Source: Escherichia coli (GTDB lineage: Bacteria; Pseudomonadota; Gammaproteobacteria; Enterobacterales; Enterobacteriaceae). Taken from it: DNA of 64,000 nucleotides. How positions within the stretch are numbered: the stretch's first letter is position 1; every line of letters begins with the position of its first letter. Below, piece after piece: positions 48,001-51,000 of this stretch. The stretch lies in NCBI RefSeq assembly GCF_003991155.1, contig NZ_CP031293.1; one strand, written 5' to 3'. The position numbers are program-made.

Positions 48001-51000
48001 CTACAATATTGGGTGAGACTATCACCATTAATACGAATTCCTCTTTGAATGTGGTAGTCGTCCTGATCATAGTAACCGAGAGATAAGTAATCATTTCCGT
48101 TTTTATTTTTAATTACAATAGCGAGAGAATCGCCTTTTTTATCTTTACCGTACCAGGTAAATAAGTCCGTTGGTTCGCTTTTCCCATTCTCATCAAATTC
48201 CGTTATCGTATGTCTGAGTTTTTGTGATATCTTATCGAAGATAAAACCAGGATCTCCATCATATATTTCTTTTAATGCGCTGAAGATCATTTCCTTGTTA
48301 TTGATATCATGAGTATTCTCTACTACATTTTCATGGATGATGGTTTGGCCGACTTTTTTGTTTTCATCGTTCGTAGGTGATTTTATTGGTTCTTGATTAT
48401 AGATACCACTAGTAATATCGGCTGTATCATTGGAGTCAATAGCACCCTCATTACCACTAACAACGATACTACCATCAGTAAAGTCAGCATTATTTATATC
48501 ATCATGAGTCTTCTCAACTATGTTGTCATTAATGATAGCACGGACGAGTTCTTTGTCTTTATAGCTCGCAAGTAATTTTATTGTTTCTTGGTTATCGATA
48601 CCAATAGTAATATAGTCTGTATCATTGGAGCCAATATCAATATAAGTAACTGAGGAATTATTAATATTAAATCTATCAGGATTGTCGTTTCCTCGTATGG
48701 CGTTTTTTATAAGCGCAAGTAGATGTTTAACACAGGTGCTTATTCCTTGCTTACCATTAAAAAGGTTTTTGAGCTCTTGTACTAATATATTAACTTCATC
48801 ATTGTTATTTTCATTGATGGATTCTGTGTAAGCTGCGCTGGTATTGTTGATTGAAATAGATGGTAGCATGATTTTATTCCATGTTGATTGATTTGTTACA
48901 AATATATATTACCTAATAAAATAGACTATCAAAAAACGCTCATTTATTTAGACCCTATCTTTAATTTGAGTGTATGAGCGCACAATAGCCAGGGTGGTTT
49001 GAGTATCCTGGAAATTCAGAAAAGTAAACTCTTTGAGAAAGACGAGCAGAACGCCTGAAAATAAGCCTTTCCCTTCAGGTTTGTCTGTGGATACCACTTA
49101 ATGATTTGAAAGGGCAAGCTACCATCAGGCTGTTTGCAAAACTCAGGAGGCAAGCAATGAGGAAACAACTTTCGTTGAAGTGTGGGAGTTAAAGTCACCT
49201 GCATAGCAGGTGACTTTATCCAGGCGAACGCGTTATCAGAACGCGTAGTTAAAGTTAGTACCGAACAGCCAGGCTTTACCTTCAGACTCGAACTGGTATG
49301 GGCCTTCGTTAATTTTCACGCTCTGACCGTGCATATAAGAAACACCAACATCGACTGAAGCATCTTTATTAAATGCGTAAGTCGTACCTGCACTCAGCCA
49401 GAAACGGTCCTGGTCCGGAATGGAGATAGAACGATTCTGTGCCGGAACTGGGCTGTCATCAAAGGCGATACCGGTACGGAAGGTCCAGTTATCATCGTAG
49501 TAATAAGTGGTTCCCAACGCGATGCGGTAAGCATCTTTAAAGCCTTCATGTTTCTGGAACAGCGTGTCGCCACTCGTTGAGGTCGCTTTCAGTTGCTGGA
49601 ACTGACTCCAGCTGGTGTAAGCCAGGCTATAGTGAATTGCCCACTGCGGATCAACACGGTTATAACCCGACACTTCCCACATTTCAGGCAGGTTCAGCGT
49701 CAGATAACCCGACTGCGTTGCGCCACCTGTCGCGGTAGGAATTGGCAAACCGTAGTTATTAAAAGCCGGGTTAAGATCGCTGCTGTAGTTACCCTTGAAG
49801 TCAATTTTCACTTCAGAGCGGTAGGTCAATGCGTAGCGGTTGTTTTTATCCAGTTCGTACAGGATCCCGGCGTTCCAGCCAAAGCCCCACTGGTTACCGT
49901 TCAGGTGAGCGATTTTGGTATTACTGTCGATGCCGTTGGCGGTAGCTGCTAATGCTTGCCCCTGAGGAGTCTGCCTGGCAGGAGATTGCATAATCTGACC
50001 AGCAACCAGCTGCCCCAGATCGCCTGCGAAACGTTCAATTTTCGCGCGAGCGTAGACGGCGTTGAAACCAAGACCAAAGCTCCATGCATTATTTAAGCGA
50101 TACGCACCGCTTAAGTTCAGGTTCATGGTTTCAAGGTCGGTTGTACCCCCGACAGAGCCGCCTGCATAAGTATCGTTAAACTCTGTTGCCAGGCCATAGT
50201 TAGAGGTAATAGAAGCGCCCCAACCAAATTGGTCGTTAATCGGTGCAACAAAGTGCATGTTCGGAACCCATGCCGTAGGCGCGATGTTATCGGCTTTCAG
50301 GCTACGGCCAGATGGAGACGTTCCGCTGATATTTACATCCGGATCAATATAAACCGCACCCGCAGAAAATGTCGGGCGGTCAAACATGGTAATCAATGCT
50401 GGGTTACGGCTAACGTTACCTGCATCATCGGCAATTGCGCCTTCCCCTGAATAAGCCCGGCCCAGGCCAGAGGAAGAAAATTCGTTTAACTGAAAGCCTG
50501 CCGACCAGGCCTGGGTGGAGATAAGTGCCACTGCGACTGCGAGAGCAGACTTTGTAAACAGGGTTTTCTGGCTCATGACCATAACCTCAATGATTTATTT
50601 TTATACAAACTATGTTACGTGCTGTAACAGGAGCGCGAAGTGTAGGGTCTGAGGTACATCTTAGAAATCAGACCAGTGGCGAGAGTATAGGTCGGACCAG
50701 CTGGAATGTTGCAAGTATGTTTCTATCTTTTTTCAAATATGATCTAAGAAACGCGATCCAGCTGGCAAAATTTGGAGGTGGCGCACTCATGGATTCGGGT
50801 GAATTTTGTTTTAGATCATTTTTAAGTGTGATTTCGGTCACTTATCCGATTTTGCAGAATTAACAACTGGAGCAGCACTTTCCGGAAGCGTAAAATATCC
50901 ACAACGTTTATCTGGCACCTTGGGTGCACATACAGAGGAAATCAACGATGAGTAAATGTAGTGCTGATGAAACCCCGGTTTGCTGCTGTATGGATGTTGG

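Follow-up and report, generated by a model that had tools for sequence, protein, structure and literature searches.

Repeats that change in number are familiar from contingency loci and VNTRs, where simple-sequence tracts underlie phase variation, and from type III effectors such as TccP/EspFU, which bear repeats that vary in number by strain. In classical lacI-type deletions, replication slippage or unequal exchange removes DNA between short direct repeats. The gene analysed here, yfdF, has itself been described, under the name icaT, in two papers of 2022 (Silue and Campbell-Valois 2022, PMC9241512; Hall et al. 2022, PMC9769918). IcaT is a substrate of the Shigella type III secretion system (T3SS), and its T3SA secretion via the N-terminal 20 aa was shown in S. 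flexneri (PMC9241512). The gene has a MxiE box and is activated by MxiE (PMC9241512), is silenced by H-NS (PMC9769918), and is silent without MxiE/IpgC, while pINV is missing from most carriers (PMC9241512, PMC9769918). It is absent from phylogroup B2; an "internal addition" was already noted in the IcaT of phylogroups D and E, and that of phylogroup E also has a 71-aa C-terminal truncation (PMC9241512). The "T" of the name stands for transposase, of the IS256-like kind (PMC9241512).

The yfdF (icaT) gene and its promoter

The window, i.e. the whole 64,000-nt stretch of Escherichia coli contig NZ_CP031293.1 that was analysed, carries a 415-aa two-copy allele of this gene as an open reading frame of 1248 nt at 47622-48869 on the minus strand, between mlaA (46688-47443) and fadL (49236-50582). 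The mlaA-yfdF-fadL order is the same in K-12 and in the other genomes compared, at least six in number, so that the gene stands in the position of the orthologue, and it shares both this location and a low GC content with the IcaT/YfdF genes of Shigella flexneri and E. coli. The GC content ranges from 0.31 to 0.39 along yfdF, as against approximately 0.5 in the flanks; yfdF is a low-GC, horizontally acquired orphan gene sited between fadL and mlaA. The finished genome of strain 2016C-3878 contains a 100% identical gene, and 358 finished genomes have copies at least 99% identical to it. Compared with K-12 yfdF the nucleotide identity is 92-93% across 95-96% of the query (93.7-95.7% by region) and approximately 93% with the indels set aside, and the first 20 residues differ from those of K-12 and S. 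flexneri by a single substitution, P15T. In RefSeq the name YfdF or IcaT is found on the 352-aa form only (icaT being the gene name in one record), and the longer or atypical alleles that were sampled are labelled "hypothetical protein". Both the internal addition and the C-terminal truncation of PMC9241512 were found again in the present alleles.

A MxiE-box-like 17-mer, TGAGCGTTTTTTGATAG, precedes the ATG by 56 nt on the minus strand (48926..48942), and K-12 and S. flexneri have the identical 17-mer upstream of IcaT/YfdF, as do O157 and MSB1_3B. It has four mismatches to GTATCGTTTTTTTANAG, and a search of the window with the MxiE consensus, allowing up to three mismatches, gave no match. With G6 and T10, at the two MxiE box positions mutated in PMC9769918, it is a candidate for the validated icaT MxiE box.

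Domain searches gave little. Matches to Pfam and NCBIfam were sub-threshold noise only, DUF7163 reaching E = 0.022 (15 bits, where the cutoff is 27 bits) and an ATP synthase epsilon model E = 0.11. No transposase family was found at E <= 1 in Pfam or NCBIfam, YfdF has no relative among PDB sequences, and an exhaustive HMMER search of 1.84 billion representatives revealed none outside yfdF's own sequences (44 matches, one full-length and the others fragments, all E. coli-type); a transposase identity is not supported. An AlphaFold2 model built on a 19-sequence alignment had a mean pLDDT of 39.5 and a pTM of 0.25, lowest in the region of the second repeat copy (pLDDT 23-26).

The internal repeat and its copy number

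A first-pass annotation made from the DNA alone had described two adjacent, diverged copies of a unit of approximately 63 codons (189 nt) within the 415-aa protein. The two copies are borne out. A DNA repeat search identified a direct repeat of 139 nt with 79% identity (48306-48444 and 48501-48639), and self-comparison of 47622-48869 gave a best ungapped off-diagonal score of 81 at offset 195, beyond all of 200 codon shuffles (13.4 +/- 1.5, maximum 18). In the protein, an alignment of aa 79-129 to aa 144-193 has 26 identities in 51 positions (51%), with a self-alignment score of 111 against 37.9 +/- 6.4 (maximum 59) in shuffles. The size of the unit needs revision, as the measured period is 195 nt or 65 codons and only a core of 51 aa is recognisable as repeated. 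The repeat was demonstrated by seed-and-extend plus self-alignment; Tandem Repeats Finder reported nothing in yfdF because the copies are too diverged.

All of the following features are on the minus strand. The core of copy 1 (aa 79-129, 48483..48635, with its DNA arm at 48501-48639) has its orthologue in the one unit that K-12 possesses, and the core of copy 2 (aa 144-193, 48291..48440) has its DNA arm at 48306-48444. The cores are separated by a 14-aa linker, FTDGSIVVSGNEGA (aa 130-143, 48441..48482), which is the most indel-prone stretch among alleles, differing by 9-, 12- and 81-nt indels, and which has no recognisable counterpart; outside the cores 2-9 nt in 15 match in register. The CTCCAATGATACAG box, at 48617..48630 in copy 1 and 48422..48435 in copy 2, is the longest stretch over which the two copies match exactly in register. 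Copy 2 also has a single GATATT (Asp-Ile) unit at 48414..48419, close to which other alleles have two to four such hexamers in frame. The repeat segment is approximately 51 aa long, acidic and Asn/Ile/Asp-rich, and has the N-terminal type III secretion signal on one side and the C-terminal domain on the other.

K-12 YfdF is 352 aa long, as the annotation had stated, but the further claim that it is exactly one unit shorter does not hold. The K-12 gene is missing exactly one 195-nt period, corresponding to 48315..48509 in the window, and has 6 extra nt near its 3' end, between 47762 and 47763; this separate two-codon indel site spans 47754..47771, where the window reads GATAACGAA|GTTGACCGT. The 63-aa difference is therefore both indels combined (415-65+2=352). 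Placement of the 195-nt segment is ambiguous by 9 nt because the 9-nt sequence ACTCATGAT stands at both ends, with its upstream copy at 48501..48509 and its downstream copy at 48306..48314; allele alignment identifies it as the microhomology of the K-12-type deletion junction.

The distribution of the two forms was surveyed in 5426 complete E. coli genomes, of which approximately 4290 have yfdF (4294 by gene search and 4286 by segment search). The segment missing from K-12 was matched at 5549 places in the 4286 genomes, giving 1263 genomes with two copies; none of the 4286 has three or more, the maximum being two places per genome. The one-copy genomes number approximately 3020, or about 70% of carriers. 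A 60-mer spanning the K-12 junction had 3534 full matches, and subtraction of 510 that fell in an 80-90% identity band, and were taken as two-copy from three sampled matches, leaves approximately 3024, equal to the one-copy count. Nearly all one-copy genomes (approximately 3024) thus have one common junction.

In-frame copy-number variation, as the annotation had proposed, is therefore real (approximately 1260 two-copy and 3020 one-copy genomes), but a dynamic, VNTR-like locus is not what was found. VNTRs and contingency loci have highly identical repeats in many states, whereas here the copies are 79% identical and number one or two; nor is there switching of frame or expression, since the unit lengths of 6 and 195 nt are both multiples of three. 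Only the GATATT run in copy 2, which differs in number among alleles, resembles a small VNTR. Unlike contingency loci, the 195-nt repeat appears old and is essentially bi-allelic. We regard it as an ordinary, largely known length polymorphism in a weakly constrained gene.

Direction of change and proposed mechanism

The reading that we favour, at a probability of roughly 80%, is that the two-copy allele is ancestral, the duplication being older than the sampled alleles, that the 352-aa form arose later by a 195-nt deletion, and that such changes have been tolerated. In a detailed alignment of approximately ten alleles the repeat units group by position and not by allele: copy 1 units are 93.5-100% identical to each other (the K-12 unit being of the copy 1 type) and copy 2 units 88.4-100%, while copy 1 and copy 2 units are only 77.5-82.6% identical, with 15 fixed differences in 156 columns. 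The dS between copies is 0.34, from 8 synonymous differences over the small number of 29.5 sites, compared with a maximum of approximately 0.2 between alleles. Over the 3' two-thirds of yfdF, the K-12 allele is 93.8-94.7% identical to the two-copy alleles of the window, HKUOPY1 and F1053, whereas these three are only 88-89% identical to the two-copy alleles of O157 and MSB1_3B. K-12 is closer to some two-copy alleles than the two-copy groups are to each other, which nests it among them, although yfdF alleles are mosaic, with pairwise identities varying by region, and a single allele tree is an approximation.

Other alleles suggest the same direction. The one-copy LR14 allele has kept the body of copy 2, has its junction in the TCCAATGATACAG box, and is a deletion independent of the K-12 type. 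The LR14-type junction is also present in EC1515, and therefore in at least two genomes, with fewer than approximately 17 judging by the rank spacing of probe matches, a count that is imprecise because the O157-type copy 1 also matches 85-92% of the probe. In S. flexneri CP058771, copy 2 is identical to the genome's own copy 1 across 136 nt and is accompanied by a window-type linker, a combination that requires a two-copy parent. Grouping by position, the nesting of K-12 and the independent LR14 junction together point to two ancestral copies, with the short forms as probable deletions. Rooting was by midpoint and nesting arguments because there is no outgroup: yfdF had 0 matches in 100,044 species-representative genomes.

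It is unlikely that the history ran the other way, from an ancestral one-copy, K-12-like form through a later tandem duplication on the way to phylogroups D and E and their relatives, followed by fast divergence of copy 2. The description of an addition in D and E strains (PMC9241512), the majority held by one-copy alleles (about 70%), a dN of linker plus copy 2 somewhat above that of copy 1, and the lack of an outgroup in either the representative-genome or the HMMER search would all suit it. However, copies 1 and 2 have diverged further (17-22% nt, dS 0.34) than the most distant alleles have, the copy 2 units of all two-copy alleles have the 15 fixed differences from copy 1, K-12 is nested within two-copy alleles in the 3' region, and LR14, having kept copy 2 and not copy 1, shares no ancestral one-copy state with K-12. 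In PMC9241512 the extra IcaT segment is treated as an addition, without being described as a duplicate of the segment next to it; our analysis instead suggests that the segment is ancestral and the 352-aa form a deletion derivative.

Under the two-copy-ancestral reading, an old in-frame duplication would have produced two segments of approximately 51 aa, 65 codons apart, before all sampled E. coli alleles diverged; a simple head-to-tail duplication of the full 195-nt unit is less sure, as the 14-aa linker has no counterpart. The K-12-type 352-aa form would then have arisen by deletion of exactly one 195-nt period, with a crossover within the 9-nt ACTCATGAT, and the LR14 type through a separate, independent loss of one period, the crossover in this case falling in the 5' box (the CTCCAATGATACAG box, at 48617..48630 in copy 1). 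The F1053 type would reflect a partial deletion of 81 nt, the one S. flexneri genome a copy 2 replaced by its copy 1, and the GATATT hexamer run expansion and contraction. The K-12-type deletion was probably caused by slipped-strand mispairing of, or unequal exchange between, the diverged repeats. As in lacI-type deletions, exactly one period is gone and the junctions fall in short identical stretches, 9 nt long at the K-12-type junction and 13-14 nt at that of LR14, a likeness, like the slippage mechanism itself, drawn from junction sequences only. With the gene silenced by H-NS unless MxiE/IpgC is present, and under weak constraint, in-frame changes would be tolerated and not selected; the length changes are probably neutral.

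Constraint, origin and significance

Constraint on yfdF is weak. Pairwise dN/dS is approximately 0.4-1.1 in the C-terminal domain and, for linker plus copy 2, approximately 0.6-1.3 in most pairs (two outliers near 3.7 come from small counts). The lesions seen in the gene are a stop codon that comes too early in O157, a frameshift in strain 100248, an insertion of IS1 and, in one case, the loss of nearly the whole gene. These observations bear on whether the repeat might be a functional type III effector module, e.g. a host-protein-binding unit, under diversifying or adaptive selection, which we consider improbable. S. flexneri does secrete IcaT as a T3SA substrate (PMC9241512), its repeats come directly after the N-terminal secretion region, where modular effector segments are common, yfdF is listed among positively selected E. 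coli genes (P = 0.041; PMC3882776), and every length change seen in the repeat region is in frame. However, the high dN/dS is gene-wide and not restricted to the repeat, so that relaxed constraint fits better than focused positive selection, and the gene has repeatedly acquired stop codons, frameshifts or IS insertions or has been lost. Without MxiE/IpgC it is silent, and pINV is absent from most carriers (PMC9241512, PMC9769918), copy number is only one or two, and Pfam, NCBIfam, PDB and the HMMER search revealed no homology to a known effector, domain or structure. As with TccP/EspFU, the product is secreted as a type III substrate and contains an internal, in-frame repeat that differs in number from strain to strain. 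It has no sequence similarity to TccP/EspFU, however, has only one or two copies, which are 49% different in protein, and has no known host target, and in most carriers its gene is silenced and in decay.

The annotation had also suggested that the protein is surface-exposed or phage-related. That yfdF is phage-derived or encodes a variable surface protein is very improbable, in spite of a match of phrog_29678 to aa 77-341 (E = 1.9e-143), five IMG/VR viral contigs that carry the gene, and a low GC content typical of acquired DNA. There was no match among 50,697 phage genomes, PADLOC had no matches, and in the IMG/VR contigs the order is yfdF-mlaA-yfdC-tRNA-prophage, which leaves yfdF as the outermost gene, beyond the tRNA-Arg(CCT) attachment site on its chromosomal side. 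The phrog_29678 match and the IMG/VR contigs are explained by over-long provirus calls at the tRNA-Arg gene argW, which overrun into yfdC, mlaA and yfdF, and phrog_29678 is most likely a chromosomal contaminant of such too-wide boundaries. Plasmid matches of yfdF were disregarded, as the records of 0.37-4.9 Mb are mislabelled chromosomes or chromosome pieces. A hydropathy scan found no signal peptide or transmembrane segment (maximum 19-residue Kyte-Doolittle mean 0.8), and the N-terminus is polar, Ser/Asn/Ile-rich and without a hydrophobic core; a Sec-exported or membrane surface protein is not supported, the published export route being type III secretion in Shigella (PMC9241512). An assembly artefact is barely credible, for although short reads can mis-assemble tandem repeats, copies only 79% identical make mistaken collapse or expansion impossible, and the identical sequence in a finished genome, with copies at least 99% identical in 358 and two-copy forms in approximately 1260, shows that the duplication is not one.

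The finding matters little beyond annotation, but it offers a small correction to the literature: the IcaT "internal addition" of phylogroups D and E would be a second, older copy of the adjoining segment, and the 352-aa protein of K-12 and the Shigella type is most likely a deletion product and not the original. The IcaT used in experiments had an expected tagged mass of 44 kDa (PMC9241512), which suggests the one-copy form; the two-copy protein has apparently been outside experiments so far. It is a slim possibility that the effector in its original, functional form was the two-copy 415-aa protein, with the 51-aa acidic repeat serving as a host-interaction module; if true, the widespread 352-aa form would be a crippled derivative and IcaT biology would have been probed with the wrong allele. 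The two-copy allele is worth including in functional tests of IcaT.

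The internal repeat of yfdF

The yfdF ORF (47622-48869, minus strand; 415 aa) is flanked by mlaA (46688-47443, plus strand) and fadL (49236-50582, minus strand). Self-comparison of the gene gave a top ungapped off-diagonal score of 81 at an offset of 195, compared to a mean of 13.4 +/- 1.5 and a maximum of 18 in 200 codon shuffles. A single long direct repeat was found, 48306-48444 versus 48501-48639, with arms of 139 nt that are 79% identical and spaced 195 nt from start to start. The internal repeat claimed in the first-pass annotation thus exists, at approximately the position given for it, although its period, given as 189 nt (63 codons), measures 195 nt (65 codons). 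In the protein, aa 79-129 (copy 1) and aa 144-193 (copy 2) are identical in 26 of 51 columns, and the self-alignment score is 111 versus 37.9 +/- 6.4 in shuffles. Because in-register identity beyond these cores is at chance level, the 14-aa linker between them (aa 130-143) has no recognizable counterpart in that comparison. Tandem Repeats Finder called no repeat in yfdF since the copies are too diverged.

Copy number among strains

Of 5426 complete E. coli genomes, 4294 gave a megablast match to yfdF, in every case on the chromosome, with allele lengths of 1248, 1059, about 1245, 1269, 1272, 1278, and 1200 nt; all representative alleles retrieved were located between fadL and mlaA. Aligned with the window allele, the K-12 gene (1059 nt, 352 aa) is missing a stretch of exactly 195 nt, the deletion junction being GTTGAGAAG joined to ACTCATGAT, and carries an additional 6 nt close to its 3' end (415-65+2=352). 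That K-12 YfdF should be shorter by exactly one 63-aa unit, as had been proposed, is thus a coincidence of two summed indels (-195 nt and +6 nt).

The 195-nt segment, used as a query, matched 5549 places in 4286 genomes, 1263 of which have two copies and about 3020 one, with more than two places in none of the 4286. A 60-nt probe spanning the K-12 junction gave 3534 full-coverage matches, of which 510 (the entire 80-90% identity band) were attributed, from three sampled rows, to two-copy alleles matched at the end of copy 2. Subtracting these leaves the K-12 junction in about 3024 genomes, which equals the one-copy count and indicates that nearly all one-copy genomes have one common junction.

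The combined length of the linker and copy 2 varies between 49 and 76 aa among 120 close homologues. This variation stems from an in-frame GATATT (Asp-Ile) run, which has one to four units, from linker indels of 9 and 12 nt, and from an 81-nt deletion of the type seen in strain F1053. The GATATT run constitutes a small VNTR whose changes always leave the reading frame intact; in copy 2 (48414-48419 in the window, approximately nt 450-500 of the gene in the other alleles) there is one unit in the window allele, two in HKUOPY1, three in MSB1_3B, and four in CFSAN061763.

Direction of the copy-number change

Repeat units extracted from seven alleles cluster by position, not by allele: identity is 93.5-100% between copies 1, 88.4-100% between copies 2, and 77.5-82.6% between copy 1 and copy 2, with 15 fixed differences in 156 columns separating the two groups. 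The single K-12 unit is a member of the copy-1 group. The dS between copies (0.34, from few sites) exceeds the maximum of about 0.2 between alleles. Over the 3' two-thirds of the gene, identity to the K-12 allele is 93.8-94.7% for the two-copy alleles of the window, HKUOPY1, and F1053; these three reach just 88-89% with the two-copy alleles of O157 and MSB1_3B, so that K-12 is nested among two-copy alleles.

A second one-copy allele, that of LR14 (968-2050 in its locus; 360 aa), is an independent deletion: the copy 2 body is retained, the crossover lies within the TCCAATGATACAG box, and there is also a 12-nt local duplication (KSHANSPAN). The LR14 junction was also found in EC1515. In S. flexneri CP058771 (1501-2754 in its locus), the copy 2 core is identical to that allele's own K-12-like copy 1 over 136 nt, next to a linker resembling that of the window allele. 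Such a pattern requires a two-copy parent and either gene conversion or misaligned recombination between the repeats. Unit clustering, dS, the nesting of K-12, and the LR14 and CP058771 alleles, taken together, argue for two copies as the ancestral state, from which the short forms derive. No outgroup was found: a conserved yfdF 26-mer had 0 matches in 100,044 species-representative genomes, and an exhaustive HMMER search against 1.84 billion representatives returned no sequences beyond those of yfdF itself (44 matches, one full-length and the remainder fragments). The deletion junctions sit in identities of 9 nt and 13-14 nt, suggesting slippage or unequal exchange between the copies as the process that would have produced the short forms.

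Origin, constraint and significance

The suggestion that YfdF is surface-exposed or phage-related was not supported. No signal peptide or hydrophobic segment was found in the 415-aa protein. A match to phrog_29678 (E = 1.9e-143) at first favoured a phage link but did not stand up: yfdF was found in 0 of 50,697 phage genomes and in just five of 2.9 million IMG/VR contigs, each time at the extreme contig end. Gene order on these contigs is yfdF, mlaA, yfdC, tRNA-Arg(CCT), a 434-aa ORF, and then the remaining provirus; yfdF is thus beyond the attachment site, and the provirus calls went past their boundary. Predictions at this tRNA (argW) run about 3.3 kb beyond the attachment site, and this excess length accounts for the presence of yfdF, mlaA, and yfdC in PHROGs and IMG/VR; phrog_29678 is probably contaminated by chromosomal sequence. 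Plasmid matches to yfdF proved to be mislabelled chromosomes or chromosome pieces. PADLOC and PDB sequence searches with YfdF returned nothing, Pfam and NCBIfam gave no match above threshold, no transposase domain was found in YfdF/IcaT despite the name, and the AlphaFold2 model (pLDDT 39.5) was too poor for use.

In the region of the window at about 40000-45386, tRNA-Arg(CCT) (45312-45386, minus strand) adjoins a gene annotated as UpaE, a phase-variable autotransporter adhesin; at this position K-12 carries prophage CPS-53. At least 80% of window 40000-47600 is present in only 185 of 5426 genomes, and GC content at 44200-45400 is 0.37-0.41. Between the convergent mlaA and yfdF, an inverted repeat (47450-47487; 16-nt arms, 94% complementary, 6-nt loop, A/T runs on the flanks) is probably a bidirectional terminator.

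The gene is named icaT in one RefSeq record. In the sampled RefSeq rows, "yfdF: protein YfdF" and "icaT" are limited to 1059-nt alleles, and every longer or atypical allele, including the window type, is a "hypothetical protein". Published work places yfdF/icaT in phylogroups A, B1, D, and E, with B2 lacking it, and suggests a possible fossil gene (PMC9241512); its AT-richness and its silencing by H-NS, in Shigella as well as in E. coli, have also been shown (PMC9769918). Several of our observations agree with these papers. The GC content of yfdF is 0.31-0.39, with flanks of about 0.5. A MxiE-box-like 17-mer, TGAGCGTTTTTTGATAG (48926-48942, minus strand), precedes the start codon by 56 nt; K-12, S. 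flexneri, O157, and MSB1_3B, most of them without MxiE, all share the window's sequence at this 17-mer. An in-frame TAA stop interrupts the O157:H7 gene (CDS 1032 nt), a frameshift that of strain 100248, and an IS1A insertion that of strain 20AR0300, and in strain 2017.06.04CC the gene is reduced to 140 nt, a near-complete loss. For the C-terminal domain, pairwise dN/dS values are about 0.4-1.1; for the linker and copy 2, most pairs give about 0.6-1.3, and two outliers near 3.7 derive from small counts. Collectively, these observations are better matched by weak constraint than by selection focused on the repeat.

The yfdF repeat and its polymorphism among strains are thus real but ordinary, an old intragenic duplication, later lost, in an orphan gene that is silenced and under weak constraint. 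The length difference among strains has been published before; the small advances made here are that the extra segment repeats the adjacent one, and that RefSeq naming overlooks the long alleles sampled. This segment is probably ancestral, not added, and has been deleted independently at least twice.
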